Source: Mycobacteriales bacterium (GTDB taxonomy: Bacteria > Actinomycetota > Actinomycetes > Mycobacteriales > SCTD01). From it: 64,000 nt of DNA. Positions 7,558 through 59,022 of the stretch are shown here, in pieces. The translations under genes were made by a program, and so were the position numbers. The notes under the pieces are model-generated. The model ran no database searches, was not told where the DNA came from, and was given only the letters and a program-made list of their open reading frames with translations. Position 1 is the stretch's first letter, and the number at the start of each line of letters is the position of its first letter. The stretch spans positions 1,343-65,342 of the forward strand of contig JBKJSN010000093.1 of assembly GCA_046595815.1 (NCBI GenBank), written 5' to 3'.

Positions 7558-7594
7558 AGCAGGTGTCGCGCCCGCACCCGTCGAAGGATCCGAC

Positions 7595-8023: not shown

Positions 8024-8054
8024 CGGCCGGCGCGACCCAGGCCCCGTCCTGCGC

Positions 8055-8870: not shown

Positions 8871-8909
8871 CCGCTGGAGTCTGCCTGCTCACCGCCCCGT
8901 CCACGTGAG

Positions 8910-9647: not shown

Positions 9648-9738
9648 GGGACCCAGTCAACCCCCGGGAAGCGCGGGCCACCGGGCGGGGTTGGGTCCGG
9701 TCAGGGCAGACTCCTGCCGGAAGAGGAGGGTGCGATCC

Positions 9739-11492: not shown

Positions 11493-11502
11493 ATCTCCTT
11501 CC

Positions 11503-12246: not shown

Positions 12247-12269
12247 CCGTCGCCCGTAGCCTGGACGAC

Positions 12270-14925: not shown

Positions 14926-14960
14926 TCGGTCCAGCGTAGTCGCGTCGTACGCTCGCCCGG

Positions 14961-17415: not shown

Positions 17416-17416
17416 G

Positions 17417-17872: not shown

Positions 17873-18008
17873 GACTCTCCTGAGGCTGGGTGGGGCGTCC
17901 TCGCCGCGTCGGGCGCACGACCAGCTGACAGGTTTCCATACTTTCGCCCGATTCGGGTGGGCAGGACGGGCCATTGACCCTCTGCGCCGCTGGGCGTTGC
18001 GTCGGCAC

Positions 18009-19052: not shown

Positions 19053-19130
19053 CCGGCTGCCGAGTTCCGGCGGGTCAGGGAAATGGCGGAAGCGGCACCG
19101 CGTCCCCTGCTCCGTGCGACAGTCACTGAC

Positions 19131-19397
19131 ATGACCGCTTCACGGCGACATCGTTGGGTGGCCCCGGTTCTGGGCCTACTCCAGCTCGCAGCCTTCATGC
19201 CCTATTTGATGGCGGGTCTCATCGCTCCCGAGGGGCAACTCGCGCTGGTCCGTGCGCTTTGGGTCGTGTTCGCCGTCGTGGCTGTGGTGGTCTACCGACG
19301 CAACCGTTTGCTGTCCCTGGCCGTTCCAGGAGCCACGCTGCTGATGGGAATTGCGCTGATGGTTGTGGGTGGGGCCTTCTTGGGATGGCAGGGGTAA
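19131..19397 (+). CDS. small 3-TM membrane protein
   Basis: Three hydrophobic stretches in 88 aa; codon usage less GC-biased than neighbours. Confidence 0.55.
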   Translation: MTASRRHRWVAPVLGLLQLAAFMPYLMAGLIAPEGQLALVRALWVVFAVVAVVVYRRNRLLSLAVPGATLLMGIALMVVGGAFLGWQG

Positions 19398-19426
19398 CCC
19401 GGGTCCTCTGTCCCGACCGACTCCAA

Positions 19427-20176
19427 TCAGGCGGAGCTGACGGCCACGACCTGGCCGGGTCGCGTGGGCACGACGCCCGCCGACTCGAGGCTGAGGCCGA
19501 AGCCAGCCGTCCTGTCGTAGGGGAGCACCAGCTGGTGTGCCTCTCCGACGGTCCCTGGTTGGGTGGCGCGGAGCGAGCCGACCAGGGTCATCTCTCCCTC
19601 ACGCGGGAGCTGCCACAGCACGTAGACCTTGTTGGCCGACGGCGGTCGCAACGTGGTCGACAGCAACTGCACCTTTCCGTCCCGCACCAGCAGCGTGGCC
19701 TTGTCCTGCAGGTTCACCACGTGGCAGCCAGGCGAGGAGGTGCACGCCGACAGCGCCAGCTGCTGCGGGGTCTGCGCTGGTCCCGACTGGGCGGCGAGGT
19801 AGGCCGCTCCGGCACCAAGCACGAGTACGGCGGCCGCGGCGGCGCTGACCAGGCGAGGCGCCCGCCGGCGGGCACGCACCTCGTCCAGCGAGGTGACCGG
19901 AGCAGGGGTCATGCCGGCGCCGCCGTCCTCCGCGCCCCTCGCCGCTGACGTCGGCGGCAAGATCCCGGCGCGGATGCGCTCCCAGCTCGGCGCTTGGTCC
20001 TCGGGGTTCACGAGGGTGCCGAGCCGGGCGGCGACGAGAGCGTGGTCCGCCAGCACGTCCGGGCAGCGCTCGCAGGTGGCCAGGTGGGCGAGGAACGCCG
20101 CCTCGTCCTCCGGCTCAAGGGCGCTCAGGGCGTGGCCAGCGGCAAGCTCCTCCCAGTGCTCGTGCACCTCAGTCAT
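19427..20176 (-). CDS. anti-sigma factor RskA-type with ZAS motif (copy 1)
   Basis: H...ALEP.D...F..HL..C..C; TM helix; YVLW, FGLSLE..G..PT.P. Confidence 0.85.
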   Translation of the reverse strand: MTEVHEHWEELAAGHALSALEPEDEAAFLAHLATCERCPDVLADHALVAARLGTLVNPEDQAPSWERIRAGILPPTSAARGAEDGGAGMTPAPVTSLDEVRARRRAPRLVSAAAAAVLVLGAGAAYLAAQSGPAQTPQQLALSACTSSPGCHVVNLQDKATLLVRDGKVQLLSTTLRPPSANKVYVLWQLPREGEMTLVGSLRATQPGTVGEAHQLVLPYDRTAGFGLSLESAGVVPTRPGQVVAVSSA

Positions 20177-20753
20177 GCAGCTCGCCCCCGCCCTCTCCCA
20201 AGTCCGGCCCCAGCTCCTCGCGCAGCTTGCGCAGGGCAGCCAGCGTCCGGCTCTTCACCGTGCCGAGCGGCATCCCTGTCATCTCGGCGATCTCCCGTTG
20301 CGTGTAGCCGCCGTAATAGGCGATCAGAAGGACCTCGCGCTGCTCAGGGGGCAGGATGCTCAGCGCCTCCCGGGTCCGCTCGGCGCGAAGGGTCGCCCAC
20401 GCCTCGTCGTCGGGCCCCGGGCTGGCCGAGACGAGATCGAGCATCACCTGGTCTTCGCTGAGGCGCCGACGACGGGTGCTCTCGCGACGAACCGCGTCGA
20501 CGGCCTTGTGGTGGGTGACCGAGAGCAGCCACGTGCTGACAGCGCCTCGCGCCGGGTCGTAGCCGGTCCCCTGCCACAGCGCGAGGAAGACCTGCTGCAC
20601 AACGTCCTCCGCCAGCTGCGGGTCGTTGAGGATGCGCCGGGCGAGTGCGTAGCAGGGCCGTCCGTAGCGCCCGTAGATGATCTCCAGCGCGCCCTCGTCA
20701 CCGGAGGCAAGGCGACGGATGAGCTCGCCATCCTCCAACGCGGTCGCGGACAT
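20169..20753 (-). CDS. ECF sigma factor, SigK-like
   Basis: AEDVVQQVFLALW, YDPARG.V.TWLL...HHKAVD.VR, AYYGGYTQREIA...PLGTVKSR; an in-frame upstream start at 20807/20810 is also possible. Confidence 0.9.
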   Translation of the reverse strand: MSATALEDGELIRRLASGDEGALEIIYGRYGRPCYALARRILNDPQLAEDVVQQVFLALWQGTGYDPARGAVSTWLLSVTHHKAVDAVRRESTRRRRLSEDQVMLDLVSASPGPDDEAWATLRAERTREALSILPPEQREVLLIAYYGGYTQREIAEMTGMPLGTVKSRTLAALRKLREELGPDLGEGGGELHD

Positions 20754-20806
20754 GGGCCCACTGTGCCAGACGTCCTGAGCGGTCACGACCGGCGGGAGCG
20801 TGGTCA

Positions 20807-21583
20807 TCACGTCTCCCCGGCCAGGAGGGGTGTCTGGATGGTGCGTACCGGCACGGCGCGCCCCTTCTCTCTCGTGACCATGAAGGCCTTGGCGGTGTCA
20901 GCGGATGCGAGCTCGAGATCGTTGATGACGCTCACGCGCGCTGACGTGACGTCGAAGGCGCCGACCGCGTGGACGTCCCCGAAGGTCGTCTTCACCCACA
21001 GCACGTAGACGCTGGTGCGCGCGTCGTTCGGGGTCACCCCGGACATGACAAGCGAGAGGGTGCGCCCGTTGACGATGACCGCGCCGCGGCCGCCGTCACC
21101 CTGGAGGTCGATCTTCCGCGTACCCGGGACGAGGAGTGATGCGACGGTCGAGCCGAGCCGGTCGGCGGCCAGCTGAGCCTGCTGCTCCCGGGGGCTCGGT
21201 CCCCGGCCGACCGACAGCACGAGCGCCAGTACGACGACCGCGGCGGCCGCGCTGACGAGGGAGGTCATGAGCCGCACGGAGCGGCGTTGGGGCCTGGTGG
21301 CCCGAAGGCCGGGACGCAGAGGCGCCGGCGGTTCGAGCTGTCGGCGCGAGGAGACCGCGCCGGAGCGGATCCCGTGAAGGAGGGAGGCAGGAGGGGCTTC
21401 GGTCGTCACGGCCCACGCGAGGTGGGCCAGGGTGTCGCGGTGGCCGGCAACGGCGCGCTCGCAGACCGGACACGTCGACAGGTGGTCCAGGAACAGCAGC
21501 TCGTCGTCAGGCTCCAGCGCGGACAGGGCCCACCCGGCTGCGAGCACGTCGTAGTCCGCGTGCCTGCGCTCGCGGTCGCTCAT
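20807..21583 (-). CDS. anti-sigma factor RskA-type with ZAS motif (copy 2)
   Basis: H..YDVLAAGWALSALEPDDE..FLDHLSTCPVC; TM helix; YVLW, FMVTRE. Confidence 0.85.
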   Translation of the reverse strand: MSDRERRHADYDVLAAGWALSALEPDDELLFLDHLSTCPVCERAVAGHRDTLAHLAWAVTTEAPPASLLHGIRSGAVSSRRQLEPPAPLRPGLRATRPQRRSVRLMTSLVSAAAAVVVLALVLSVGRGPSPREQQAQLAADRLGSTVASLLVPGTRKIDLQGDGGRGAVIVNGRTLSLVMSGVTPNDARTSVYVLWVKTTFGDVHAVGAFDVTSARVSVINDLELASADTAKAFMVTREKGRAVPVRTIQTPLLAGET

Positions 21584-21627
21584 CACGCCGCCTCGGGCGG
21601 CCGGCTGACCGCGCTCGCTGTCCTCAC
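21583..21627 (-). other. leaderless 14-codon mini-ORF (MRTASAVSRPPEAA) coupled to anti-sigma copy 2
   Basis: GTG exactly 8 nt after the CGAA -10, as in the two sister promoters; TGA overlaps the anti-sigma start (GTGATG). Confidence 0.4.
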
Positions 21628-21635
21628 GCAGTGCA

Positions 21636-21662
21636 TTCGCGCGCCGAGCGTCTCCGGATCGG
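21636..21662 (-). promoter_or_regulatory. SigK-type promoter 1
   Basis: CCGATCC-N16-CGAA. Confidence 0.6.
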
Positions 21663-21673
21663 TGCCGGGAGCC

Positions 21674-22309
21674 TCAGTGGGAGGCATGAGGTGCTCCGTC
21701 GTGCTCGTGCTGGAGCCGGCAGCTGAAGTAGGCCGTGACGCCACGGTCGACCCCGCGAGAGTCGATGTCACCGGTCAGGATCGGCGCCGACGGGCACGGC
21801 GCCACCGAGGAGCCGTGCTCATGGGACGGGCTGGCGAGGGCCGTGCCGCTCACCGAGCCGCAGAGCAGCAGCACGGCCGCGAAGCCGAGAGCCCTGCCCC
21901 GTCCCAGCGGCGCGGACAGGGCGCGGGGGCGGCGAGAGAGCAGCAGCGCACCGAGGGCAACAGGCACCTCGAGGGCACAGCACAGCAGGTCCCTCGTCCC
22001 CACGGGCTCCGCGGTGAAGGCCGCCGGTCCGAGGGGCAGACCGGTCGTCCTGCTCACCAGGTACGTCCCGATGAACACCAGTGAGACCAAGCCTCCCAGG
22101 CGTAGGGCCACTCGCGAGTCCCGTGTCGCGACGAGGACGGCCCACAGCACCTGGAAGACACCGGCAGCGGCGAAGGCGACGCCCAGCGGCCGCCACTGCT
22201 GGTAGTGCTCGCCGACGAAGGACAGGTGAACGGCTCCAGCACCTAGTGAGGCCGCAGCGAGGACGATTCGAGCTGCCGTGCGCTGCGGCAGGCCGGAGAG
22301 AGTCTTCAT
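21674..22309 (-). CDS. multi-TM membrane protein with His motifs
   Basis: GAVHL....EHY..W, SRTTGLPLGP; C-terminal HEH..C...C..HEHDGAPHASH. Confidence 0.75.
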   Translation of the reverse strand: MKTLSGLPQRTAARIVLAAASLGAGAVHLSFVGEHYQQWRPLGVAFAAAGVFQVLWAVLVATRDSRVALRLGGLVSLVFIGTYLVSRTTGLPLGPAAFTAEPVGTRDLLCCALEVPVALGALLLSRRPRALSAPLGRGRALGFAAVLLLCGSVSGTALASPSHEHGSSVAPCPSAPILTGDIDSRGVDRGVTAYFSCRLQHEHDGAPHASH

Positions 22310-22317
22310 GCCAGGCG

Positions 22318-22344
22318 TTCGCGCCGGTGAGCTTCTCGGACTTC
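22318..22344 (-). promoter_or_regulatory. SigK-type promoter 2 (leaderless)
   Basis: GAAGTCC-N16-CGAA-N8-ATG(22309). Confidence 0.55.
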
Positions 22345-22356
22345 CCTGGCGCTGTG

Positions 22357-22383
22357 CCGAACCGAATGGCCGGGCGGCGCGAA
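22357..22383 (+). promoter_or_regulatory. SigK-type promoter 3 (leaderless)
   Basis: CCGAACC-N16-CGAA-N8-ATG(22392). Confidence 0.6.
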
Positions 22384-22391
22384 AGCAAGGC

Positions 22392-22817
22392 ATGACCCGA
22401 CACCGAGCCACTACCTCCAGCCGCGTGTACTCAGCAGCGCTCGTCACGGCGGGCCTCCTGGCTCTGACGGCCTGCAGCTCGAGCAGTGGCGAGGCGGACA
22501 GCACCGACGGCGGCACGAGCGCCGACGGCGTCAGCGTGGACACCGGGCTGCTCGCCTTCGACCCCAAGTCCGTCACCGTCACCAAGGGCCAGACGGTGAC
22601 CTGGGTCGGCGGGGACAACATCAGCCACATCCTCGTGCAGGGCTCCTACGAGGTGGGTGCGGATGGCCTCCGCACGAAGGAGAGCGACGACAAGGCCTTC
22701 AACCTCACGCTCAACCGCAAGGGCCAGCGCGTGACCCACACCTACAGCACGTCCGGGACGTTCACCTACTTCTGCACGATCCACAAGGGGATGAACGGCA
22801 CCGTCGTCGTCTCCTGA
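22392..22817 (+). CDS. cupredoxin (plastocyanin/azurin-like) lipoprotein
   Basis: Lipobox LTAC; AFDP..VTV..G.TVTW, SHIL, YFCTIHKGMNG type-1 copper ligands. Confidence 0.9.
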   Translation: MTRHRATTSSRVYSAALVTAGLLALTACSSSSGEADSTDGGTSADGVSVDTGLLAFDPKSVTVTKGQTVTWVGGDNISHILVQGSYEVGADGLRTKESDDKAFNLTLNRKGQRVTHTYSTSGTFTYFCTIHKGMNGTVVVS

Positions 22818-22896
22818 TCGACCCCCTCACCCCACAAGCCAGGCCGCTCGTCCGAGCGCGCCCTGACCCTGCCCACTCCCACGAAAGAAGCTCACC

Positions 22897-24135
22897 ATGC
22901 AACGCACACCGGTCAGGATCGCGGCCGTCGCACTGGGTATCGCTCTCTCAGCGACCGCCTGCGGCTCCAGCAACGACACCAAGAGCGCGTCAGCCGGCTC
23001 CCCGTCGGCGTCCGCCACCACGGGCACGGTCGGTCTGGAGGCCACGACGACCAAGGCCGTGACACTGCGTGCCGGTCTGACGTACCTCCTCGAGGAGCAC
23101 GTCCAGCTCGCCGGCATCGCGACGGGCACTGCCCTGGCGAAGAAGGGCAACCTCAAGGACCCGGCCGTGAAGGCCGCCGTCGCGGCTCTCGACGCCAACT
23201 CCGTCGCGCTGAGCAAGGCTGTGGGCTCGGCCTACCCGCAGGCGGAGGCGCCGTTCCTCGCCTCCTGGCGCCAGCACATCGGGTTCTTCGTCGACTACAC
23301 GCTCGGCAAGGCCACGAAGGACAAGGCGATGACCGCGAAGGCCATCAAGGCCCTGGACGGCTACCGCACCAGCTTCGGCCAGCTCATCAACTCCGTCGTG
23401 CCCGAGCTGCCTGCCGACGCTGTCGCCAACGAGCTCAAGCCGCACGTCGCAAGCCTCTTCGCCGCCATCGACGCCCAGGTCGCGGGGAGCCCCAAGCAGT
23501 TCGCCCTGCTCCAGGAGGCGGCCGGCCACATGCCCGGCACCGCGGCGATCCTCGCCAGCGGCATCGCGACGAACCTCAAGCTCGGGAAGACCGACACGGG
23601 CGCCGGCGACCTCCGCGCGGGGCTGACCGCCCTGCTCACCCAGCACGTCTACACGGCCGGCATCGCGATCAACACGGCCGTCGCCAAGGGCGGGAACCTG
23701 AAGGACCCGATGGTGGTCGCCGCCGTCAACGCCCTCGACGCCAACTCCGTCGCGCTGAGCAAGGCTGTCGGCGCGGCGTACCCGCAGGCGGAGGCGCCGT
23801 TCCTTGCGTCCTGGCGCCAGCACATCGGCTTCTTCGTCGACTACACGCTCGGCAAGGCGACGATGAGCGACGCGAAGGTCACGAAGGCGAAGGCCGACCT
23901 GGACGGCTACCGGACCAGCTTCGGTCAGCTCATCAACTCGGTCGTGCCCGAGCTGCCTGCTGACGCCGTCGCCAACGAGCTCACGCCGCACGTCGCGAGC
24001 CTGTTCACCGCGATCGACGCCGTCGTAGCCGGTGACCCCAGTGTCTTCACCAAGCTGCAGGCAGCCGCTGGTCACATGCCCGGTACAGCCGCGACGCTGG
24101 CCGGCGGGATCTCGCAGAACCTCAAGCTCAGCTAG
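22897..24135 (+). CDS. lipoprotein with two tandem helical His-bearing domains (family often labelled 'copper amine oxidase-like')
   Basis: Lipobox ATAC; 182-aa repeat, each copy with LL..HV, WRQHIGFFVDY, PHV, AGHM. Confidence 0.75.
   Translation: MQRTPVRIAAVALGIALSATACGSSNDTKSASAGSPSASATTGTVGLEATTTKAVTLRAGLTYLLEEHVQLAGIATGTALAKKGNLKDPAVKAAVAALDANSVALSKAVGSAYPQAEAPFLASWRQHIGFFVDYTLGKATKDKAMTAKAIKALDGYRTSFGQLINSVVPELPADAVANELKPHVASLFAAIDAQVAGSPKQFALLQEAAGHMPGTAAILASGIATNLKLGKTDTGAGDLRAGLTALLTQHVYTAGIAINTAVAKGGNLKDPMVVAAVNALDANSVALSKAVGAAYPQAEAPFLASWRQHIGFFVDYTLGKATMSDAKVTKAKADLDGYRTSFGQLINSVVPELPADAVANELTPHVASLFTAIDAVVAGDPSVFTKLQAAAGHMPGTAATLAGGISQNLKLS
23065..24129 (+). repeat. intragenic tandem duplication, period 546 nt
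   Basis: GACGCCAACTCCGTCGCGCTGAGCAAGGCTGT at 23191 and 23737, with many other near-identical blocks. Confidence 0.9.
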
Positions 24136-24152
24136 CCTTAGCACCAGCTAAG

Positions 24153-24188
24153 AGGTGGGGAGGGTCACGACCGTGACCCTCCCCACCT
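24153..24188. terminator. long perfect hairpin (terminator or mRNA stabiliser)
   Basis: AGGTGGGGAGGGTCACG-ac-CGTGACCCTCCCCACCT. Confidence 0.7.
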
Positions 24189-24213
24189 GTCTGAGTACCC
24201 CAAGGGGGGCACC

Positions 24214-24789
24214 GTGAGGGCTCACGGCGAAGGCTCGCGGACGCAGCCTGCAAGTTGGGCGAGGGTCACGGCGGCCTTGGTACTCGGGGCAGGGATCGCC
24301 GTCGCTCTCGGGGGAGTAGGACGGGCCCTGACTCCGGAGTACAGGTTGCTACCGGGTTTCGGCTTCACCGACAACCTCACCTTCAAGGCCTGGCTCGCCA
24401 GCGGCGTCCTGCTCCTCGCCGGTGGCCAGCTCCTCACGGCGCTCTGGATGTTCGGCCGCCTCCCGCTCGTCCACCGGCGGCCTGCGTGGTTGGCGCGCAC
24501 GCACCGGTCACTCGGCGCCACCGCCTTCCTGCTCAGCCTCCCCGTTGCCGCTTGCTGCCTGCTCGCCTACGGCTTCGCTCCCGCACCCCTCTCCGGCCGA
24601 ACCCTCGCGCACTCGGTGCTGGGGTGTTTGTTCTACGGGACCTTCGCCGTCAAGGTCCTGGCTGTCCGCTCAACCCGGGTCTCGCCCTGGGTTCTGCCCG
24701 TCGTGGGCGGGAGCCTGTTCACGCTCGTCGTTCTCCTCTGGATGACAAGCGCCCTGTGGTTCTTCCAGGTCACCGGAATCCACCTGTGA
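24214..24789 (+). CDS. DUF6529-like membrane protein (possible di-His haem b binding)
   Basis: KAWLAS...QLLTALWM.GRL, HRSLG, PVA..CL..YGF, HSVLGCLFYG.FAVKVL, WVLPVVGG.LF. Confidence 0.75.
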   Translation: MRAHGEGSRTQPASWARVTAALVLGAGIAVALGGVGRALTPEYRLLPGFGFTDNLTFKAWLASGVLLLAGGQLLTALWMFGRLPLVHRRPAWLARTHRSLGATAFLLSLPVAACCLLAYGFAPAPLSGRTLAHSVLGCLFYGTFAVKVLAVRSTRVSPWVLPVVGGSLFTLVVLLWMTSALWFFQVTGIHL

Positions 24790-24817
24790 CAGCCGGCCCC
24801 TGGCCGGGCCTAGCTGC

Positions 24818-25870
24818 TCAGAGACCGAGCACGCCTGACCGCGGCCGGCGTGGGCCCCCGCGGCCGAGCCACGGACCCAGGACCGGGCTTCGGAAAGCCT
24901 TGCGGAGTAGGGCATCGCGGACCGCCGTACCGTGCGAGGCCTGCAGCACCGCCCCGACGAGCAGCGACAGCCGCGTCATCTCCCGCACGTGCGGAGCCCG
25001 CAGAGCCGGGTAGTCAGCCACGCGTCCGGCGGGTAGCAGGGCACCGAGGGCCCAGGCGTCCCTGATCCCGGCGCCAAGGCCCTGCCCGGCGAAAGGCGGC
25101 ATGGTGTGGGCCGCGTCCCCCGCCAGGAGCACCCGCCCCTGGTGCCACGAGGCGGCCCGCCGGGCGCCGTACCTGTAGTCGGTCGCCCGCACGACCGGCA
25201 GCGGCACCTCGGGAGGCGCCTGCCCGTCGCGCAGCAGGAACTCCCACCGGTGCCCGCCCGGCATCGGCATGTCGACCGTCGGCATCGCTCGGTCGCAGGA
25301 GTACGTGAACCCGTCCCGGTAGCTCCCCGTCCCGTCCACGACGCGCCACCTGTGTGGCAGATCCCTTCCCTGCCAGGCGATTCCGGCCAAGGTTCGCACC
25401 GTGGAGGAGGCCCCGTCGCACCCCACGAGCCACCCGGCTCGCACCTGGCCCTCCGTCGTCCGCACGGTGACGCCGTCCGGAGACTGGGTCAGCCCCGTGA
25501 CCGCAACGCCCCGGCGTACCTCGCAGGTCAGCACTGACGCCAGCCCCGCTTCGAGCGTGGGCTGGTGGAAGAACGACAGCCCGCTGAAGCCGGCCGCCGA
25601 GCGAGGGAAGCGGATGGTCCCGAGCGGGCGGCCACCGGAGACGAACCGCACCGGCTGGTCGTGCAGCATCCCCGCGACCAGCGATGGGTCGCACGCGGCC
25701 AGGATCTGCTGGACCTCGTCGTCCGCCGCGATCGCCCGCGGCAGGGGGTAGGCCTCCGAGGCGCGCTCCACGACGAGCACAGCCATGCCCTCCCGGGACA
25801 GGCGCAGCGCGAGCACCGCGCCCACCGGGCCCAGCCCGGCGATCACCACGTCGTAGTCGTGCACTCGCAT
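24818..25870 (-). CDS. FAD-dependent monooxygenase (MhpA-like, compact)
   Basis: GLGPVG, PRAI, HQPTLE, GCDGASS, LAGDAAHTMPPFAGQG. Confidence 0.85.
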   Translation of the reverse strand: MRVHDYDVVIAGLGPVGAVLALRLSREGMAVLVVERASEAYPLPRAIAADDEVQQILAACDPSLVAGMLHDQPVRFVSGGRPLGTIRFPRSAAGFSGLSFFHQPTLEAGLASVLTCEVRRGVAVTGLTQSPDGVTVRTTEGQVRAGWLVGCDGASSTVRTLAGIAWQGRDLPHRWRVVDGTGSYRDGFTYSCDRAMPTVDMPMPGGHRWEFLLRDGQAPPEVPLPVVRATDYRYGARRAASWHQGRVLLAGDAAHTMPPFAGQGLGAGIRDAWALGALLPAGRVADYPALRAPHVREMTRLSLLVGAVLQASHGTAVRDALLRKAFRSPVLGPWLGRGGPRRPRSGVLGL

Positions 25871-32431: not shown

Positions 32432-33949
32432 TTAGCCCTGGTGCGCCAGGCGGCGACGGCGGGCGACGAGCGCGAGGCCCATGAGGCTGATCGCGATCGG
32501 GCCGGTCAGGGCGAAGTTCGCACCCGTGCGGGCCATCACCGGCTGGGCCGTGGTCGTCGCCGGGCGCGTGGTGCGCTGCGGCGGGACCGAGGAGTTGGCC
32601 TTGACGACGTCGGCCGCGGCCGGGACGAACTGGATGTCCAGCAGCGGCTTGGTGCCGAAGACCGCGCCGACACCCGGCAGCGTCGGGTTCACGACGAGGC
32701 GAGCGGCGGAGACGGAGCTGGCGGCGTGGTCGGGCGTCTCGATCTGCTCGCCGACCGCGGTCTGGGTCAGCGTTGCACCCAGGACGCTGTTGAGCAGGGT
32801 CGTGATCTGCGCCAGGGCGCCGTTCACCGCGGTGACGACGGCTGCCGGCAGAACCGGGCTGCCGAGGGCAGCCTGCAGGCCATTGGTGACCTCGAGGCTG
32901 AGCAGGTCCTTCACGTTGACCTTGAGCAGCGCGTTCTGGCCCTTGTCGGCGGTCGCCTTGCTGATGCCGTTGCCCAGCTTGGCCGACGCCTGCGAGGTGA
33001 GGCCGTCGACGGTCACCAGACCGCCCAGCGCGCTGACGCCGATGAGCTTGTTGCTAGAGGTGGACGTGACGACGCCCGCAGCGCGCTTGACCGTCTGCTC
33101 CGACTCGATGAGGCCGACCTTGAGCAGCGAGGTGTCCGCAGCAGCCGACTTGATCTTGCCGGAGAGCAGGCCCGGGAGGGCGTCGAGCTGGTCGATGACG
33201 TCGGCGATGGCTGCCTGGACCTCGTCGGTGGTCGGTCCGGTCGCGCCGGCGCTGGCCTCGTCGAGGGCATCGGTGACCTGGCCGAGCAGACCGGTGACGG
33301 TGTTGCCGACCGTGGTGGTGACGCCGCCGATCGCCTCGGTCTGCGAGGCGCTCTGCGTGCCGAGAGCCGTGGACAGCACGGCAGCGATCTGCACGTTGAG
33401 CAGCTCGAGGATCTTGTCCAGGACGCCCGTGCCGTCGACCGTGAGGTTCGCGACCGTGCTCAGGCTGTGCGACACCTCGCCGTCAACGGTCGGGTTGTTG
33501 GCGACCGAGTTGAGCTCGAGGGCCTTCGCGTGGATGCCGAAGCCGGCCAGGCCGTCCTTCAGCTGTTGCGGCAGCACCGTGAACGGCGCCGGCGCCGGCT
33601 TGCCGTACTCCGCCGTCACGCTCTTGTTGAGCAGACCTGACAGCGCGACGACGTTGCCGTTGGCGCCGAGCGTCGAGGTCGCGATCGCCTTGACGTCGTT
33701 GGTGCGGATGGTGCCGCCCGTGAGGACCAGGTCCTGGGTGAGCGTCTGGGGCAGGCCGGCCGTCTTGAGGACGTCCGCGAGCTGCGCAGGCATGTTGATG
33801 GTCAGGCGGATGACGGAGCCGCCACCTGACGCAGTGAAGTCGGTCTTCTGAGTGTTGACGGCACCCGCCGTACCCGCACCGGCAGCGACGAGCGTGCCGG
33901 TAGCCAGGGCAAGAGCGGTCAGCCGCGCGACCCGTCCAGTGCTGGTCAT
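32432..33949 (-). CDS. secreted A/T/L/V-rich surface protein with LAXTG-like sorting signal
   Basis: Signal peptide; C-terminal MARTG + hydrophobic helix + RRRR; AAGGGG RBS; strongly biased codon usage. Confidence 0.8.
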   Translation of the reverse strand: MTSTGRVARLTALALATGTLVAAGAGTAGAVNTQKTDFTASGGGSVIRLTINMPAQLADVLKTAGLPQTLTQDLVLTGGTIRTNDVKAIATSTLGANGNVVALSGLLNKSVTAEYGKPAPAPFTVLPQQLKDGLAGFGIHAKALELNSVANNPTVDGEVSHSLSTVANLTVDGTGVLDKILELLNVQIAAVLSTALGTQSASQTEAIGGVTTTVGNTVTGLLGQVTDALDEASAGATGPTTDEVQAAIADVIDQLDALPGLLSGKIKSAAADTSLLKVGLIESEQTVKRAAGVVTSTSSNKLIGVSALGGLVTVDGLTSQASAKLGNGISKATADKGQNALLKVNVKDLLSLEVTNGLQAALGSPVLPAAVVTAVNGALAQITTLLNSVLGATLTQTAVGEQIETPDHAASSVSAARLVVNPTLPGVGAVFGTKPLLDIQFVPAAADVVKANSSVPPQRTTRPATTTAQPVMARTGANFALTGPIAISLMGLALVARRRRLAHQG

Positions 33950-34060: not shown

Positions 34061-34088
34061 TCAACGAGCGTTCCCAGCCTAGGTGACG
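34061..34088 (-). promoter_or_regulatory. putative sigma-BldN-type promoter of the surface-protein gene
   Basis: CGTCAC-N16-CGTTGA. Confidence 0.7.
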
Positions 34089-34258: not shown

Positions 34259-35482
34259 CTAGGGCTTGACGGCGGGCAGGGACTGCGGCGCGGGCTGCAG
34301 CGTCGGCAGGCCCGTGGGCTGCGGCAGCAGCGTCGGCAAGATCGTGGGCAGGATCGTCGGCCACACGCCGGGGGACGGAGAGGTCGTCGGCGTCGGGGTC
34401 GGCGTCGGCTCGCTGGTGGGTTCGGTCGTCCGTTCCGGGGTGGGCTCGTCGGTGGGGGACGTCGTCGGACCAGGCGTGGGCTGCGGGGTCGGGCCCGGCT
34501 CGCCGCAGGTGCACGGCGGGACACCGTTGTCGTCGGGCTGCTCGGGGCTGGCGCTCGCACCCGGCGTGGGACCGGGCTCCACAGGAAGGGTCGGGCCGCC
34601 GGTGGCCGGGTCGCATGACTGGCCGCAGGTGCCCAGGTTGAGCAGCTCGACGGCGGTGCTGCCGACCTCCTCCACCAGGTCCAGCGACTGCTGGGCCGCG
34701 AGGGCCGTGCCCGCGGGCAGCTGCGGGATGAGCGTGGCGAGGCGGGCTTGCTGCTCGAGCGAGAACGAGCTCAGGACGCGCAGCGGAGCCGTGCGGCCGG
34801 TGTTCCGGTAGACGCTCTCGAGCAGCGCGCGGCCCTTGCGGGTCTCGGTGTCGAAGTCGGCCAGGGTGTCGTTGATGCGATCCTGCCGCGAACCGGAGGC
34901 CAGGCTGCCAGCAGCCAGCGTGCCCGTGCCGGCGCCGCTCAGGGCGAGCTCGCCGTCCCCCTGCGCCAGCGCTCGCACCTCGCGCAGTCGGGTGGCGGCG
35001 AACTCCAGGTGCTTGCCGCCGCGGGCGGTGTCGTTGTCGGCGAGCTGCAGCTGCAGGCCCTCGCTGACGCGCTTGAGGCTGTAGAAGGGCTGACCGGGCA
35101 GGGAGCGTGAGGAGGCCACGCCCATGCCGGTGATCGCGACGACGCCGGCCATCGCACCGGAGGCGAGCGCCATGCGCCGTTGCGCCGTCCAGCTCTGCGA
35201 CCACGCGCGCACACGCTCGAGTGACCCAGCACTCGCGGGCACGGCGGCAGCCGCGGGAGCGGCCTGGGCTCCGTGGACCTCCGCCACGGCGAGGAGCCGC
35301 TGACGCAGCGCGATCCGGAACTCCGGGCGAAGGGAGGCCTTGTCGTCCAGAGCGGGAGAGATGACCCGGAGCCGGGTGGCGAGCGTCGCGAGCCCAGCCG
35401 TCCTGGTCGTCGGACCGGCGACAGCCCCCTCAAGCAGACGCGCGAGCTCTTCGGCTCGGGCGCGGTTGCCCAGGGGGTTCAT
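34259..35482 (-). CDS. rsbN: DUF5667 anti-sigma factor RsbN-like
   Basis: RAEELARLL, PEFR..LRQRL, TM, SLPGQPFYSLKR..E, L.FA.TRL.E; Pro/Thr tail; directly downstream of bldN. Confidence 0.8.
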   Translation of the reverse strand: MNPLGNRARAEELARLLEGAVAGPTTRTAGLATLATRLRVISPALDDKASLRPEFRIALRQRLLAVAEVHGAQAAPAAAAVPASAGSLERVRAWSQSWTAQRRMALASGAMAGVVAITGMGVASSRSLPGQPFYSLKRVSEGLQLQLADNDTARGGKHLEFAATRLREVRALAQGDGELALSGAGTGTLAAGSLASGSRQDRINDTLADFDTETRKGRALLESVYRNTGRTAPLRVLSSFSLEQQARLATLIPQLPAGTALAAQQSLDLVEEVGSTAVELLNLGTCGQSCDPATGGPTLPVEPGPTPGASASPEQPDDNGVPPCTCGEPGPTPQPTPGPTTSPTDEPTPERTTEPTSEPTPTPTPTTSPSPGVWPTILPTILPTLLPQPTGLPTLQPAPQSLPAVKP

Positions 35483-35555: not shown

Positions 35556-35584
35556 CCAACGAGCGGAGGGCCACTGGGGTGACG
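35556..35584 (-). promoter_or_regulatory. putative sigma-BldN-type promoter of rsbN
   Basis: CGTCAC-N17-CGTTGG. Confidence 0.6.
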
Positions 35585-35627
35585 GCGGCTCGTCCGGTAT
35601 GTCCGGATCGTACTGCCGTTGAGCCCC

Positions 35628-36272
35628 TCACAGCTCCACTCCCTCGGGCAGGAGCCGCCCCAGGGTGCGGATGGCGCGGTATTGCAGCGCCTTGATCGCT
35701 CCATCGTTCTTGCCCATGATCTGCGCCGTCTCGGCGACCGACAGGCCCTGGAGGAAGCGCAGCACGATGCACTCCTGCTGCTCGGTGTTGAGCTGCTTGA
35801 CCGCCTGGAGCAGGACCTTGTTGGTCATCCCCTCCAGGACCGCACGCTCCGGGCCCTCGATGACGGGGGCCGAGCCGGAGTCGGTGACGTCGTCGGTGGT
35901 CAGCTCGAGCCGGTAGCGGCCGCTCTTGTAGTGGTCGGCCACGAGGTTGCGGGCGATCGTGGTGAACCACGCCCCGACGTCACGGCCCTGCCAGGTGAAG
36001 GTGCTGATCCGGCGCAGCGCCCGCAGGAACGTCTCGGAGGTCAGGTCCTCGGCGACGGCCGAGCTGGCGACGCGGTAGGCGATGTAGCGGTAGACCTGAT
36101 CGACGTACCGGTCGTAGAGCAAGCCAAAGGCATCGGCGTCCCCGGCCTGCGCGCGCTCGACCAGGGCAAAGGTGACAGCGCTCTCGCCCTCCGGGGCGGC
36201 GGTTTCGACCCGGTCGTGGTCGGGTACGGCGGGGGTTGGGACAGCGGCATCGCTGGTCACTGCCCTGGTCAC
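35628..36272 (-). CDS. bldN: ECF sigma factor BldN family
   Basis: LVERAQAGDADAFGLLYDRY, AEDLTSETFLRALRRISTFTWQGRD.GAW..TIARNLVADH.KS, QQEC..LRFLQGLSVAETA..MGKN.GAIK.LQYRA; frame open further upstream so start uncertain. Confidence 0.9.
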   Translation of the reverse strand: MTRAVTSDAAVPTPAVPDHDRVETAAPEGESAVTFALVERAQAGDADAFGLLYDRYVDQVYRYIAYRVASSAVAEDLTSETFLRALRRISTFTWQGRDVGAWFTTIARNLVADHYKSGRYRLELTTDDVTDSGSAPVIEGPERAVLEGMTNKVLLQAVKQLNTEQQECIVLRFLQGLSVAETAQIMGKNDGAIKALQYRAIRTLGRLLPEGVEL

Positions 36273-36421
36273 CTGGCGTCCCTGGGCACGGCCGCTCCCG
36301 CAGGGTGCGCGGGCAGGCGGGCGTGCATGGGACTCCGTTCGGGCTCCGGGGGAAGTCGTACGAGCCGGTGCACGCATCGTACGGGCGCGCCCCGGCTCGC
36401 GAAGGCGTTCTGACACGTTGT

Positions 36422-36450
36422 GTCTCGGCACGTACGGCGGGCTGCCTGAG
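36422..36450 (-). promoter_or_regulatory. putative sigma28/WhiG-type promoter of bldN
   Basis: CTCAG-N16-GCCGAGAC. Confidence 0.55.
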
Positions 36451-36511
36451 CCGTTCGGGGCTCTCGTGCGCTTCGTCACAGCCGACGGTTGTGGCCACGT
36501 ACTCTGCCTCC

Positions 36512-38809
36512 ATGGTCGCGCCGGGTCCAGCCTCGTCACGTGCGCGGGCCGTGGGCCAAGGCCGCCCTCGGCGCCGGCCGCACCGGCGTGCCCGCCTCGT
36601 CGCGCGCTCGCTGCTGGTCCTCGTGCTGGCGACCACCGTCGGGACGGCGACCTTCGTGGCCGGCCTGCTCGCGGCGCCCATCGACCTCGCGGTCGCGCCC
36701 CCGCCCAGCTCGGTGCTCCTGCTTGCCGCCGACGGGCGCCAGTTCGCGACGCTGCAGCCCACGGAGCGGCACGAGAACGTCGCGGCCGAGGACATCCCTC
36801 AGGCGATGCGCGATGCGATCATGGCCGCCGAGGATGCGAAATTCCTCACCCACAGTGGGGTCGACGTCCTCGCCACGCTCCGAGCGGCGTTCCGCGATCT
36901 CACCGGCGGCTCCGTGCAGCAGGGTGGCTCGACGCTGACCCAGCAGTACGTGAAGAACGCCTATGTCGGGAACGAGCGCACGGCGCTCCGCAAGATCCGC
37001 GAGGCGGCGCTCGCGGTGCGGCTGGAGCGCAAGCTGTCCAAGCAGCAGATCCTCACCGACTACCTCAACGCGCTCTACCTCGGCAACGGCCTGTACGGCG
37101 TGCAGGCCGGCTCGCGCTACTACTTCGGCGTCCCCGTGAAGGACCTCGAGCTCAACACCCGCACGAACAAGCGCGATCCGCTCCTCGGGCTGGCCCGCGC
37201 CTCGATGCTGGCGGGGATCGCGCCCGCGCCGTCCTACTGGAACCCGGTCAAGGACTTCGCCACGGCGCGCGGTCGGCAGCAGTACACGCTCAACCGGATG
37301 GTGGTGGCTGGCTTCGCCTCGCCCCAGCAGGCGAGTGACGCCTACCAGTACGACGTCCGCCCGCTCCGGGTCAGGGCGCAGGAGCAGCCGACCATCGCGC
37401 CCGAGTTCGCCGACTACGTCAAGGCGCGGGTCAAGGCCAGCGAGTCCTACGAGGAGGACACCTTCTTCCGCGGACGGCTGCGGGTGCGCACCACGCTCGA
37501 TCTGGACCTGCAGCAGGCCTTCAACGAGGCGCTGCGTGACGTCCTGCCCGACGCCAAGGACCCGCAGGCCGCGATCGTGGCCGTCGATTACACCAACGGT
37601 GACGTGAAGGCGATGGCGACCTTGCGACGGGTGCCTGCCTTGAAGTACCCCGACGGGCGGCTCTACCGCCCGGCCACCACGCAGTACGAGCAGCGACTGG
37701 GCTTCAACCTCGCCACAGCGGCTGAGCGGTCGTCGGGGTCGACCATCAAGCCGTTCACGCTGGCGGTCGCGCTGCAGCAGGGGCAGTCGCTGAACACCAC
37801 ACGCTATGCGCCCAACCGCGACTCGATCCCGAACCCCGGTGGTTTTCCTAACCCCTACGTCTACTCCAACGCCGACGTGAGCGAGTCCGGGCGCTTCAGC
37901 CTGCGCCGAGCGATGGCCGACTCGGTCAACACGGTGTACCTGCCGCTGGCCAAGGAGGTCGGCCGCGGGAAGGTCGCGGCCCTGGCCGAGGCGGCCGGGC
38001 TGCAGGGGCGGCTGCGTCCGGGGAACCTGTCGTTCGGCATCGGAGCCGGCGCCGAGGTGACACCGATCTCGGAAGCCATCGCCTACGGCACCTTTGCCAA
38101 CGACGGCGTGCGGATGCCTACCCGCTCCTTCACCGAGATCCGCCAGGGCGCCACCGTGTCGGACCCGGGTGAGGTGGTGCAGTCGGTGGGAGTCGACAAG
38201 GGAAAGCGGGTGATGAGCAAGGGCGTGGCGCGCGACGTCGTGACGGCCTTGACCGACGTGGTCGAGCGCGGCACCGGCAGCCGGGCGCGCCAGCCCTTCC
38301 CGGTCTTCGGCAAGACGGGTACGACGAATGACTCCACCGACGCGTGGTTCACCGCGTGCATCCCGGACCAGAAGATCTGCGTGGCGACGTGGATGGGTTA
38401 TGAGTTCTCCTCGTGCGACCCGCGCGGGCCCAAGCCGGAGCGGGCGCGGCTGACCGTCGTCGGTCCCTGCGGGGGGATGAAGAAGCTCCACGGCTTCAAG
38501 CAGGTCTTCGGCGGGACGCTGCCCGCGGAGATCTTCGCGAAGGCGCAGGAGAACCTGCGCCGCATCAAGGCCGAGCGGGCTGCCCGTGCGGCGGGCTTGC
38601 CGGTGCCCACCCTGACGCCGACGGCGACGAAGAAGCCCAGGGTTGTGCGCACCAGCGCTCCCCGCCCCACCGTCACGGCCACGGTGTCCGCGACCCCCAC
38701 ACCTGCTCCGGTCCCGACCACGCCGTCTCCGGAGCCGACCACGACGGGCATCCTGCCGCCGCCGCCCACCTCGCCACCTCCCAGTCCACCGGCGCCCAGT
38801 CCGCCCTAG
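36512..38809 (+). CDS. class A penicillin-binding protein (transglycosylase/transpeptidase)
   Basis: AAED..F..H.GVD, QGGSTLTQQYVKN, RKIRE, YLN; SGSTIKP, SVN, KTGT; Pro/Thr tail; TACTCT -10 leaderless. Confidence 0.95.
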   Translation: MVAPGPASSRARAVGQGRPRRRPHRRARLVARSLLVLVLATTVGTATFVAGLLAAPIDLAVAPPPSSVLLLAADGRQFATLQPTERHENVAAEDIPQAMRDAIMAAEDAKFLTHSGVDVLATLRAAFRDLTGGSVQQGGSTLTQQYVKNAYVGNERTALRKIREAALAVRLERKLSKQQILTDYLNALYLGNGLYGVQAGSRYYFGVPVKDLELNTRTNKRDPLLGLARASMLAGIAPAPSYWNPVKDFATARGRQQYTLNRMVVAGFASPQQASDAYQYDVRPLRVRAQEQPTIAPEFADYVKARVKASESYEEDTFFRGRLRVRTTLDLDLQQAFNEALRDVLPDAKDPQAAIVAVDYTNGDVKAMATLRRVPALKYPDGRLYRPATTQYEQRLGFNLATAAERSSGSTIKPFTLAVALQQGQSLNTTRYAPNRDSIPNPGGFPNPYVYSNADVSESGRFSLRRAMADSVNTVYLPLAKEVGRGKVAALAEAAGLQGRLRPGNLSFGIGAGAEVTPISEAIAYGTFANDGVRMPTRSFTEIRQGATVSDPGEVVQSVGVDKGKRVMSKGVARDVVTALTDVVERGTGSRARQPFPVFGKTGTTNDSTDAWFTACIPDQKICVATWMGYEFSSCDPRGPKPERARLTVVGPCGGMKKLHGFKQVFGGTLPAEIFAKAQENLRRIKAERAARAAGLPVPTLTPTATKKPRVVRTSAPRPTVTATVSATPTPAPVPTTPSPEPTTTGILPPPPTSPPPSPPAPSPP

Positions 38810-55474: not shown

Positions 55475-56081
55475 GAGGGCGCCGTGGGTCGTCGGGGTCA
55501 GCGGTGCCAGCGGTACGCCGTACGCCAAGGCCGTGCTCGGCGCGCTGCTCAAGGCGGGGCACGCGATCGACCTCGTCGTCAGCCGGGCTGCCCGGCTCAC
55601 CCTGCTCGACGAGACCGGGATCGCCTGGCACGACGACACTTCGAGCTTCGCTCAGTGGGTGGGTGCAGAGGGCGACGTGCGCTTCTGGGGCCCCGCCGAC
55701 CTGGCCGCCGGGCCCTCGAGTGGCAGCTATCAGACGCGCGGGATGGTCGTGGTCCCGGCGAGCACCTCAGCGGTCGCGGGGATCGCGCTGGGGCTGAGCA
55801 AGGACCTGCTCCAGCGGGCGGCGAGCGTCACGCTCAAGGAGCGGCGGCCGCTGGTCGTGGTCCCACGTGAGACGCCGCTGGACCGGCCCACCTTGCAGCA
55901 CCTGCTGGCGCTGCATGACGCAGGCTCCGTGGTGCTCCCGGCGAGCCCTGGGTTCTACGGCGGCGCGGACTCGGTCCAGCGGCTCGTCGACTTCGTGGCG
56001 GGCAAGGTGCTGGATGTGCTGGGGGTGGAGCACGACCTGTTGACCCGTTGGAAGGGCGAGCTAGGAGCAGGTCAGGCCTGA
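55464..56081 (+). CDS. ubiX: UbiX family flavin prenyltransferase
   Basis: WVVGVSGASG, PSSGS, LLQRAA.VTLKERR, PRETP, PASPGFY. Confidence 0.95.
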   Translation: MTQGRAPWVVGVSGASGTPYAKAVLGALLKAGHAIDLVVSRAARLTLLDETGIAWHDDTSSFAQWVGAEGDVRFWGPADLAAGPSSGSYQTRGMVVVPASTSAVAGIALGLSKDLLQRAASVTLKERRPLVVVPRETPLDRPTLQHLLALHDAGSVVLPASPGFYGGADSVQRLVDFVAGKVLDVLGVEHDLLTRWKGELGAGQA

Positions 56082-56287
56082 CGCGCAGGCGGGTCCCCGC
56101 GGAGCAGGGCCCGGACCTCGGACTCGCGGAAGCGGCGGTGGCCGCCTGGCGTGCGGATGCTGTTGATCCGCCCGGCCGAAGCCCAGCGCGTCACCGTCTT
56201 CGGGTCGACGCGGAACAGCGCGGCCACCTCGCCAGGCGTCAGCAGCCGGTCTCGCTGCGGCGGTCGCGCGTGCGTCTCGTCAGCCAT
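56072..56287 (-). CDS. BldC-family transcriptional regulator (possibly a paralog rather than the BldC ortholog)
   Basis: LLTPGEVAALFRVDPKTVTRWA.AG...IRTPGGHRRFRE.EVRALL; GGAGG RBS. Confidence 0.9.
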   Translation of the reverse strand: MADETHARPPQRDRLLTPGEVAALFRVDPKTVTRWASAGRINSIRTPGGHRRFRESEVRALLRGDPPARQA

Positions 56288-56333: not shown

Positions 56334-56361
56334 TCAACGACGCGTTGGGTTGATGGTGACG
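56334..56361 (-). promoter_or_regulatory. putative sigma-BldN-type promoter of the bldC-family gene
   Basis: CGTCAC-N16-CGTTGA, same boxes and spacing as 34061-34088. Confidence 0.7.
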
Positions 56362-56444
56362 CGGTGTCGGGTTTCTCGCAGGCCAATGGATCGCTTTGTC
56401 CGGTTTCGCCCGTCCCAGGTGATCAGGAGGTGGTCAGGAGGTGA

Positions 56445-57133: not shown

Positions 57134-57276
57134 CCGGAGCCGCGGGTGTGACGGCATTCGGCGGGAATGCCCAAGCAGTTGGACTAGTGGCATATGGCCC
57201 GCATGTGCCATGGAGCACTGGCGCCCTGGTCTGGACACTCCTGAGCAACCTGACCTAGTTGCACCTGGAGCACTTC

Positions 57277-59022
57277 GTGATCCGTCGCCCCCTCCTCGCC
57301 ACGACCGCCGCCGCAGCTGTCCTTGCGCTGATCGCCGCATCTGGCTCAGCCTCTGCCGCCTCGACCACCTCTGCCGCCGGACGTGCCACCACGAGCGTGA
57401 CCGTGCTGGACCTTTCCGTCGCGGGGCACGAGCTGAGCCTCGTCGACCTTGCACTGAGCAGCGACACGATCGCCTCTCCGCGGGTGTCGTCGATCGCCCT
57501 GACCCCGGTCACGGTGGACGGCACGGGCTACGGCCGCCAGACGGTCAACCAGTCGACGTCGCCGAAGACCGTCGGCGCCTTGAGCACGCCCTCGGCGGTG
57601 GGCCCGTTCGCGGCCCTCACCAGCCCAGCAGTCGAGCTGACTGCGACGAGTACGCCGTCCAACCGGGCGGGCGCCGAATCGCTCGGCACGGTCAAGGTGC
57701 TGGGTCTGCCAGTGAAGCTGGTGGGTGAGCTGACGACCTCCACCTCCGTCACCGCGACTGCAGGGGCCGCTGGCGTCACGACGATCCGCATCGACGACCT
57801 GGCCCTGCCCAGCATCGCCGACCTTCTCGGTGCGCTCGGTCTGGACCTTTCCGCCCTTCCGCTCGACACCCTCGATGAGCTGATCAACTCCCTGGAGCTC
57901 ATCACCTCGGCGCTGGTGGCCGCTGAGAATGCCGTAGACGACGCGCAGGCCGCGGTCGATGCCGCCACGACAGACCTGGCGACCAAGACCGCTGACCTTG
58001 CCGCGGCGGAGGGGGCCCTCACGGCCGCTGAGGCCGCGTTCGCGACCGCCACGACCACGGTGGACGCCCTGCTGGCCACAGCCGGGATCGCCGACGTTGC
58101 GACGTACGAGGCGCTGTCCCAGCTGCTCAAGGATGCTGCCGAGCTCCTGGCTCCCGGCTTGGCCGCAGCAGTCACCGACTACCTCGCCGCGGAGGCGGCG
58201 GTCGCTGCGGCGACGGGGGTTGTCGCCACCGCCCAACTGGCCTTGGACACCGCCCAAGCGCTGCTCGCCAGCCTGACCTCCACGCTGACCTCGGCGATCG
58301 CGACCCTGCGCACGCTGTTGACGGCTCGCCTGGATGCGACACCGCTCGTGAGCCTTGACAGCCTTGAGGTCAGCACGAAGGCCTCCGCCACGAGCGCGAG
58401 CAAGGGCGGCCAGCACGCGACGGTCGTCGGCGGGACGGTGAAGGGCCTGGAGGTCCTGGGCGTCGACGTGCTCGCGGAGGTGACAGGCAGCCGGACCCTG
58501 GACCTGGCCGGGGTCGCCTCCTCGACCATCGCCGCGGTGAACAGCCTGATGGCCGAGGTCACCGGCACCTTGTCCGACGTGCTCTCGAACGTGCCCGGCT
58601 TCCCGGTGCTCGACGTACCCGCTCCCAAGGTGGGCCTGCTCACGAAGTCGACCTCGACCTCTATCAGCGGCGGCTTCGGCCGGGCGTCCGCGTCGATCAG
58701 CGGGCTGACGATCACGATCCCGGGCATCACCCTGCCGACCTCGCTGGCCCTGCCCGGCGCTGCTGGCCTCCCCGCGATGACCAGCGTCACGCAGGTGGCT
58801 GGGCAACTGACCAGCGCACCGATCACTGCACGCGTACTGACCCTGCGCGACCAGGCTGCGTTCCGACCAGGGGTCATCGGCAGCGGAACCTCGGCGGGCG
58901 GGCCGTCCGGTAGCACCGGTGGCATCCCGAACACGGGCCTCCCGGTCGGCGTCGCTGCCCTGTCGCTCCTGCTCTTGGGGGGCGCCCTGGCCGTGCGTCG
59001 CCAGCTGGCCATGGTCGGCTGA
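57277..59022 (+). CDS. secreted A/T/L/S-rich surface protein with coiled-coil and LPXTG-like anchor
   Basis: Signal peptide; Ala-rich heptad region; IPNTG + hydrophobic helix + RR. Confidence 0.8.
   Translation: MIRRPLLATTAAAAVLALIAASGSASAASTTSAAGRATTSVTVLDLSVAGHELSLVDLALSSDTIASPRVSSIALTPVTVDGTGYGRQTVNQSTSPKTVGALSTPSAVGPFAALTSPAVELTATSTPSNRAGAESLGTVKVLGLPVKLVGELTTSTSVTATAGAAGVTTIRIDDLALPSIADLLGALGLDLSALPLDTLDELINSLELITSALVAAENAVDDAQAAVDAATTDLATKTADLAAAEGALTAAEAAFATATTTVDALLATAGIADVATYEALSQLLKDAAELLAPGLAAAVTDYLAAEAAVAAATGVVATAQLALDTAQALLASLTSTLTSAIATLRTLLTARLDATPLVSLDSLEVSTKASATSASKGGQHATVVGGTVKGLEVLGVDVLAEVTGSRTLDLAGVASSTIAAVNSLMAEVTGTLSDVLSNVPGFPVLDVPAPKVGLLTKSTSTSISGGFGRASASISGLTITIPGITLPTSLALPGAAGLPAMTSVTQVAGQLTSAPITARVLTLRDQAAFRPGVIGSGTSAGGPSGSTGGIPNTGLPVGVAALSLLLLGGALAVRRQLAMVG

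Follow-up and report, generated by a model that had tools for sequence, protein, structure and literature searches.

Conserved BldN-type promoters in a Mycobacteriales bacterium, with predicted outputs that differ from those of Streptomyces

Results

Genes and promoter-like sites at the locus

The window, by which we mean the whole 64,000-nucleotide stretch of DNA analysed here, encodes an ECF sigma factor of the BldN family (bldN, 35628–36272, reverse strand), whose start codon is uncertain, with in-frame GTGs at 36272 and 36260. The assignment made in the preliminary description is borne out, as the protein passes the NCBIfam cut-off for the BldN family (TIGR02952, 208.5 bits for a cut-off of 206.45), and its best match in the PDB is S. 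venezuelae BldN itself (6DXO, E 1.5e-64, the next match being at 9e-17). A class A penicillin-binding protein gene (36236–38809, forward) lies divergent from bldN. Directly after bldN comes a gene (34259–35482, reverse) with a DUF5667 match (PF18915, 39.8 bits), whose product has one hydrophobic stretch and a Pro/Thr-rich tail; a DUF5667 gene downstream of bldN fits rsbN, and an anti-sigma role is predicted for it. It is followed by the gene of a secreted protein with a sortase-type C-terminus, composed of MARTG, a hydrophobic stretch and a basic tail (32432–33949, reverse), for which no family scores over cut-off. The two remaining genes of interest are an SsgA-family cell-division gene, likely of SsgB type (7595–8023, forward; PF04686, 103 bits), and a gene for a 71-residue BldC-family regulator, here called bldC2, situated between ubiX and an Lrp/AsnC gene (56072–56287, reverse; NF033787, 106.4 bits for a cut-off of 77).

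A further large secreted protein is encoded at 57259–59022 (forward), between lrp and mqnE; it too ends in a sortase-type tail (IPNTG), it matches nothing in Pfam or NCBIfam, and its gene is without a BldN site. A SigK-like ECF sigma factor gene with an anti-sigma-type gene on either side occupies 19427–21586 (reverse). In the gene of a predicted lipoprotein (22897–24135, forward), which matches no family, about 520 nt are duplicated internally, the copies being 80% identical.

Four promoter-like sites had been described in this DNA, and all are present letter for letter, intergenic and oriented toward the genes for which they were named. The element CGTCAC-N16-CGTTGA lies before bldC2 (56334–56361, reverse, 46 nt from the start codon) and before the surface-protein gene (34061–34088, reverse, at 60 or 111 nt), and these are its sole exact copies in the window. 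CGTCAC-N17-CGTTGG precedes rsbN (35556–35584, reverse, 73 nt) and a degenerate CGTACC-N16-CGTTTC precedes ssg (7530–7557, forward, 37 nt). When set beside the Streptomyces BldN consensus, CGTAACN16CGTTGA (PMC2375139), the bldC2, rsbN and surface-gene sites are one mismatch (A to C) away from CGTAAC, and the ssg site departs further.

Occurrence of the motif in one genome and conservation across relatives

The exact element CGTCAC-N16-CGTTGA occurs four times in the 3.13-Mb genome, and the two copies in the window compare with 0.028 expected from word counts, for a motif chosen after the sequence had been seen. A search of the whole genome for CGT[AC]AC-N16-CGTTG, along the lines that the preliminary description had put forward as a check, yields 10 matches against 5.6 expected, an excess that wrong spacers equal, reaching 10–11. 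Since the enrichment within this genome is weak and the spacer control is flat, counts from one genome do not show selection, and own-genome counting was dropped as proof of the motif. A scoring matrix built from 72 sites in other genomes gives, at a cut-off of at least 21 bits, five matches in the genome with N16 and one with N17, and 12 for 20 other spacer lengths together; its top four include the three strong window sites, the surface-protein site ranking first. The matrix over-fits the spacer and misses the conserved sigH site described below.

What lifts the sites above chance is their conservation across relatives. The chance of finding a site in a 300-nt upstream stretch is about 0.0005–0.003, and in the genus alignments the two boxes are invariant while the spacers drift, at four different genes. 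Over 23 genomes of the genus there are 182 matches to the N16 pattern and 42 to a reversed control in which codon bias is uncorrected. In addition, strict motifs total two in five genomes without a BldN match, against 23 in nine genomes of other families with BldN.

The rsbN promoter region

The element before rsbN had been proposed as an internal positive control, and it serves as such: it is kept in 19 of 19 genus loci, as in Streptomyces, and is also found in 5/5 sister-genus loci, 10/10 loci of other families (one unpublished genome left out) and five of five genomes of a family outside the order, f35. The 17-nt spacer is that of the S. coelicolor SCO3324 (rsbN) site, CGTAAC-N17-CGTT (PMC2375139, supplement 3). 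No conserved BldN site was seen before bldN itself in 30 loci. In family f35, three of the five genomes have a second BldN paralogue, with no motif downstream of it. Lastly, a TTTCGG(AC) element that resembles a BldC repeat (AATT-N4-C) is conserved 8–15 bp upstream of the rsbN −35 (35590–35615 in the window, and in orthologues), and could reflect feedback of BldC or BldC2 on rsbN.

bldC2 is a paralogue of bldC with its own conserved promoter

The bldC2 product matches the BldC structure 6AMA (E 4e-25) and keeps the equivalents of the BldC DNA-contact residues K26, R30 and H46. The genome has two BldC-family genes, and the other one (contig C123, 59508–59711) is about 88% identical to Streptomyces BldC, while bldC2 is about 69% identical over 64 residues (both counted by hand). 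The C123 gene adjoins an amino-acid dehydrogenase gene and purM/purF-like genes, which we take to be the bldC neighbourhood. Because the C123 gene is the closer of the two and the window gene has a ubiX/lrp neighbourhood, bldC2 is a paralogue and C123 carries the true bldC. The motif is absent before true bldC in all 20 loci of the genus set and in all five of the sister genera. The idea that a BldC-family gene is a target therefore stands with respect to the conserved BldN-type promoter of the paralogue; that bldC is a BldN target does not follow. True bldC and its orthologues have a highly conserved upstream block of their own (C123:59711–59850; GACTAGTCC..AGATGGCCC...GGGCCATA.CGGACAAG...GCATCGGGCA), to judge from its pattern a clear footprint of regulators.

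In the genus, CGT[C/G]AC-N16-CGTTGA occupies the same position in 18 of 19 bldC2 loci, that of the window among them, and the 19th has it with two mismatches; from three further genomes true bldC alone was recovered, and from one neither gene. Averaged over pairs of loci, identity reaches 0.98 for the −35 and 1.0 for the −10, against 0.53 for the spacer. The site is found in all five sister-genus loci. Other families of the order contributed ten loci, not counting one from an unpublished genome; nine lack the site and the tenth has CGTAAC-N17-CGTTGG about 260 nt upstream. Among 80 named bldC2 loci 12 are positive, and these include 8 of 9 from Micromonospora, whose site has CGTAAC or CGTGAC and also lies about 260 nt upstream of bldC2. 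Twenty-nine loci taken from across the class include six of family f35, all six with CGTCAC-N16-CGTT some 95 nt before the gene; of the others, 21 have no match and two have loose, misplaced ones. As said, f35 lies outside the order, and bldN is present in 5/5 of its genomes. No site was found in seven Actinoplanes-type loci, nor in the Streptosporangiales loci. Two genomes of family f42 lack both bldN and the bldC2 site, and three genomes of families f44 and f31 have bldN and lack the site. Judged by conservation, the predicted link between BldN and bldC2 is real, specific to the paralogue and patchy, being present in about three independent lineages, which is the effective number for bldC2 as kin are not independent.

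Just upstream of the bldC2 −35 lies a GACAC (56364–56368, reverse), conserved in the genus alignment, which is a candidate WhiA site, the WhiA motif being GACAC (PMC3781837), or part of a BldC-type repeat of the form AT-rich-N4-C. A structured RNA in the bldC2 leader was considered and rejected (z = −0.02), and the window has no Rfam match at gathering score. A BldD domain is present in the genome; BldD boxes (TNAC-N5-GTNA) are absent from the five promoter regions of the window.

The ssg promoter and a BldM box

In S. griseus, transcription of ssgA may depend on sigma-AdsA (BldN). Here the site before ssg has 1+2 mismatches, a class that counts 338 members genome-wide, and is uninformative when taken alone. 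At the orthologous position, 20 genus ssg loci show 12 exact sites, four with one mismatch and three with two, the remaining locus being cut by a contig end; the two-mismatch sites are those of the window and of two close relatives. Four of five sister genera also have the site, and a more distant, second ssg paralogue has it in none of six genus and none of four sister-genus loci. The proposal that the Ssg gene is a target accordingly finds backing in the conserved BldN-type promoter of the orthologues, with the window's own site among the weakest.

Upstream of the same promoter, the window has the GGGTGA half (7511–7516, forward) of a BldM box, of which most orthologues carry the whole palindrome, TCACCCGnnCGGGTGA; the BldM Group I consensus is TCACcCgnncGgGTGA (PMC4125116). 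Allowing at most two mismatches, the 16-bp palindrome is found upstream of ssg in 14 of 19 genus loci and before a second copy of the window ssg on contig C173, the window itself retaining the half-site only. Where measured, the box stands 14–15 bp before the ssg −35, and random windows give 3 in 1000. In S. venezuelae ssgB is a direct BldM target (PMC4125116), and likewise a Group I palindrome lies upstream of ssg here; unlike in the known BldN-to-BldM cascade, the box lies 14–15 bp before a BldN-type −35. This arrangement suggests that BldM and BldN would act on one ssg promoter instead of in a BldN-to-BldM cascade. The more distant ssg paralogue (the third one, on contig C223) has upstream of it TGGGCCGnnCGGGTGA, which resembles the BldM-WhiI Group II box TGnnCCGnnCGGGTGA (PMC4125116).

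The provenance of this end of the window calls for caution. Positions 1–10 kb have a GC content of 0.72–0.77 against about 0.70, are a tetranucleotide outlier and are duplicated at 70–81% by contig C173; on these grounds the left segment, with ssg, may be foreign, bin contamination, mis-assembled or a chimera. C173, which has its own degenerate site and BldM box, aligns far more continuously to a close relative than does the window segment. Among contigs aligned to window 5500–25400 no piece spans the stretch, and the alignment is uninformative on chimerism of the left 10 kb. The genes of window 1–10121 that are duplicated on C173 comprise an XRE regulator, ssg, a methyltransferase and an SDR, at 65–80% protein identity.

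Sites elsewhere in the genome

The regulon had been called local, a view that has to be given up, as sites are found genome-wide, beyond the window. The surface-protein site recurs in all six other genomes of the genus in which the locus was read, five of which were picked by the motif. Genes recurring downstream of sites, as read for 40 of the 150 genus matches listed, are the surface protein after rsbN, a class E-like sortase, a Spo0H-type SigH, secreted subtilases, other secreted proteins and a polysaccharide priming transferase. Starting from the genes, the sigH site was recovered in 18 of 18 loci (genus and two near relatives) and the sortase site in 15 of 17, and in this genome both genes have an exact CGTAAC. 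In the sister genera the sigH site is seen in 2/5 genomes, one of the misses being cut by a contig end. The Spo0H-type sigH gene (contig C164:1170–2170) scores 306 over a cut-off of 208 for NF006148 and 292.6 for TIGR02859, just under the cut-off of 294.8; in the genus, its BldN-type site is followed by a conserved TG..[C/G]TGCAACACTGG element.

We have also looked before a bldM-like gene, which we take to be bldM from its position before guaB and its likeness to bldM in sequence, the NCBIfam matches of the protein being only to the general NarL type. Within up to 1.5 kb upstream, none of 30 loci has the motif; two of the loci are paralogues of greater distance, three have a short upstream sequence and one comes from an unpublished genome. 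The gene (contig C71:8180–9871) follows a kinase-like gene, and upstream of the pair, an apparent operon, most genus loci have two tandem BldM-like boxes 22 bp apart, an arrangement that suggests autoregulation of the bldM-like gene instead of control by BldN. The chaplin domain PF03777 has no match in the genome, which is 89% complete, nor in any of 14 controls, so that this is a weak test.

Discussion

Which factor reads the sites

The simplest alternative is that the sites are chance matches in high-GC DNA. The flat spacer control within the genome and the very common mismatch class of the window ssg site are what this explanation would predict; conservation across relatives refutes it where bldC2, rsbN and the surface gene are concerned. 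Overall it is left with next to no weight, as the site recurs at a constant position in different genera and orders while its spacer drifts, and is lacking at the paralogues. The sites could also be genuine ECF promoters with another reader, such as a SigD/ShbA-like, a SigR/SigH-like or a Spo0H-type SigH factor, given that there are 24 sigma-70 region-2 matches in the genome, that SigR-type promoters likewise end in GTT (PMC2375139) and that sigma-ShbA and mycobacterial SigD (ECF40) have the same −35, CGTAAC (PMC12019637). The −10 of the latter two is CGAT(GA) (PMC12019637) and not the CGTTG seen here, and it is accounted for by two SigD/ShbA-like ECF sigma factors of this genome (C79:4704 and C213:1809), each with an adjacent CGTAAC-N17-CGATG of its own pointing at the neighbouring gene. 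Moreover, among 16 other families of the order a single one was found to have a Spo0H-type gene, whereas many more have the motif, and the motif lies between bldN and rsbN in every lineage read, one f44 locus excepted. A different reader is in our view very unlikely.

Two further possibilities concern the nature of the boxes. At bldC2 the element might be mainly a housekeeping promoter (TTGACC-N17-nAnnnT) joined to a regulator site (GACAC/CGTCAC), its BldN look being a by-product. Indeed, in 17 of 20 bldC2 loci the −10 overlaps TTGACC with nAnnnT 17–18 nt further on, the six bases after CGTTG are conserved at 0.95 and the eight before the −35 at 0.78, outgroup bldC2 orthologues often have a GTGCT[G/C]TAAT housekeeping promoter, and GACAC is the motif of WhiA (PMC3781837). 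An overlapping housekeeping −35 could explain part of the conservation of the bldC2 site. As the whole explanation it is decidedly unlikely, because both BldN boxes persist without that −10 in the window and its two closest relatives, because the CGTCAC-N16-CGTT retained by sister genera and f35 has endings (CGTTGT, CGTTGG, CGTTCC) that break TTGAC, and because the same two boxes occur at rsbN, sigH and the sortase gene with no TTGACC after them. The preliminary description had, for its part, held that this BldN prefers CGTCAC, that is, that the −35 specificity of the lineage changed from CGTAAC to CGTCAC. This was at first convincing from the rsbN sites, where the −35 is CGTCAC in 19/19 genus loci and four of five sister genera, whereas every other family read has CGTAAC or AGTAAC there; the BldN proteins of the family also form one well-supported clade (100/98), and Ile220 replaces Val in region 4.2. 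We have rejected it, as region 4.2 is nearly unchanged (the helix KN[D/E]GAIKALQYRA is otherwise shared and one outgroup also has Ile220), the −35 boxes are mixed within the genus (the same genomes keep CGTAAC at the sortase gene in 15/17 loci, and sigH sites mix CGTAAC, CGTCAC and CGTTAC) and CGTCAC turns up in outgroups, f35 having CGTAAC at rsbN and CGTCAC at bldC2, and four genomes of other families having CGTCAC at ssg, with CGTAAC, or no CGTCAC, before their rsbN. A shift in specificity is unlikely; the preference holds as a frequency in the family, and BldN proteins of the class are likely to accept both CGTAAC and CGTCAC.

We consider it probable, and hold with good confidence, that the sites are promoters read by the BldN of the window, which would switch on rsbN, bldC2, ssg, the Spo0H-type sigH and cell-surface genes. 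Transcription from the sites, the sigma factor responsible and all timing are here predictions, drawn from observed sequences, positions, conservation and protein families.

Comparison with Streptomyces

Published excerpts report that bldN orthologues occur across morphologically complex actinomycetes (PMC4255298) and name as BldN targets the chaplins, the rodlins, bldM and rsbN (PMC4255298, PMC9205884, PMC2375139, PMC5859096, PMC11960193, PMC7776599, PMC6426705, PMC7826278, PMC12019637, PMC4125116, PMC3278627, PMC3781837, PMC6428758, PMC6101532). The present system shares with the Streptomyces sigma-BldN/RsbN regulon (ECF121; 6DXO) an orthologous sigma factor with an adjacent anti-sigma gene, a similar promoter, here CGT[A/C]AC-N16/17-CGTTG, and outputs linked to the surface and to sortase. 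It differs in that bldM p1 is a target there and the bldM-like gene has no site here, and in that the bldC paralogue, ssg, the sortase gene and the Spo0H-type sigH are predicted targets here that those excerpts do not name. The literature covered yielded nothing on BldN targets outside Streptomyces or on the bldC paralogue; the S. venezuelae regulon paper lies outside that coverage and may list CGTCAC sites or ssg/bldC-like targets. In Streptomyces, BldC (6AMA/6AMK), which belongs to the same family as BldC2, delays development and is repressed by BldD (PMC6428758, PMC4125116), whereas bldC2 would be activated by BldN.

A predicted circuit

In the circuit that we propose, BldN released from RsbN would form a holoenzyme that reads CGT[A/C]AC-N16/17-CGTT(G), and transcription of rsbN would provide negative feedback as in Streptomyces. 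The surface protein, the sortase, the secreted proteases and the polysaccharide priming transferase would remodel the envelope, in place of the chaplins. At ssg, co-activation by BldM, bound 14 bp ahead of the −35, would form an AND gate with BldN, BldM itself being apparently not driven by BldN here. Since BldC2 keeps the DNA-reading residues of BldC, it would bind BldC-type repeats, either on its own or together with BldC in mixed head-to-tail filaments, and, once BldN has fired, would retune the regulon of BldC. For most of the genus, basal expression of bldC2 would come from the overlapping housekeeping-type promoter (TTGACC-N17/18-nAnnnT), and in the clade of the window, where that −10 is lost, bldC2 would depend on BldN alone.

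The conserved set of BldN-type promoters is, on the comparative evidence, real, and its outputs are predicted to differ from those of Streptomyces. The most interesting of the predicted links are those from BldN to the BldC paralogue, from BldN together with BldM to ssg, and from BldN to the Spo0H-type SigH. The fuller proposal is more tentative, and we give it somewhat less than an even chance: a rewired circuit outside Streptomyces, in which BldN would act through a second BldC that counters or retunes the delaying BldC, with ssg gated together with BldM and a SigH cascade, and in which the bldC2 link would have arisen or been kept in at least three lineages, including the culturable Micromonospora.

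For the role of BldN outside Streptomyces, these results offer a concrete list of targets backed by footprinting, and they give a first regulatory handle on a widespread bldC paralogue, for which a direct test is possible in Micromonospora. The relaxed consensus CGT[A/C]AC-N16/17-CGTT widens regulon searches across the class. The case, which is built on sequence conservation, is one of known parts rewired, and the rewired circuit, if true, would point to a developmental stage as yet hidden in a soil family that is widespread and uncultured.
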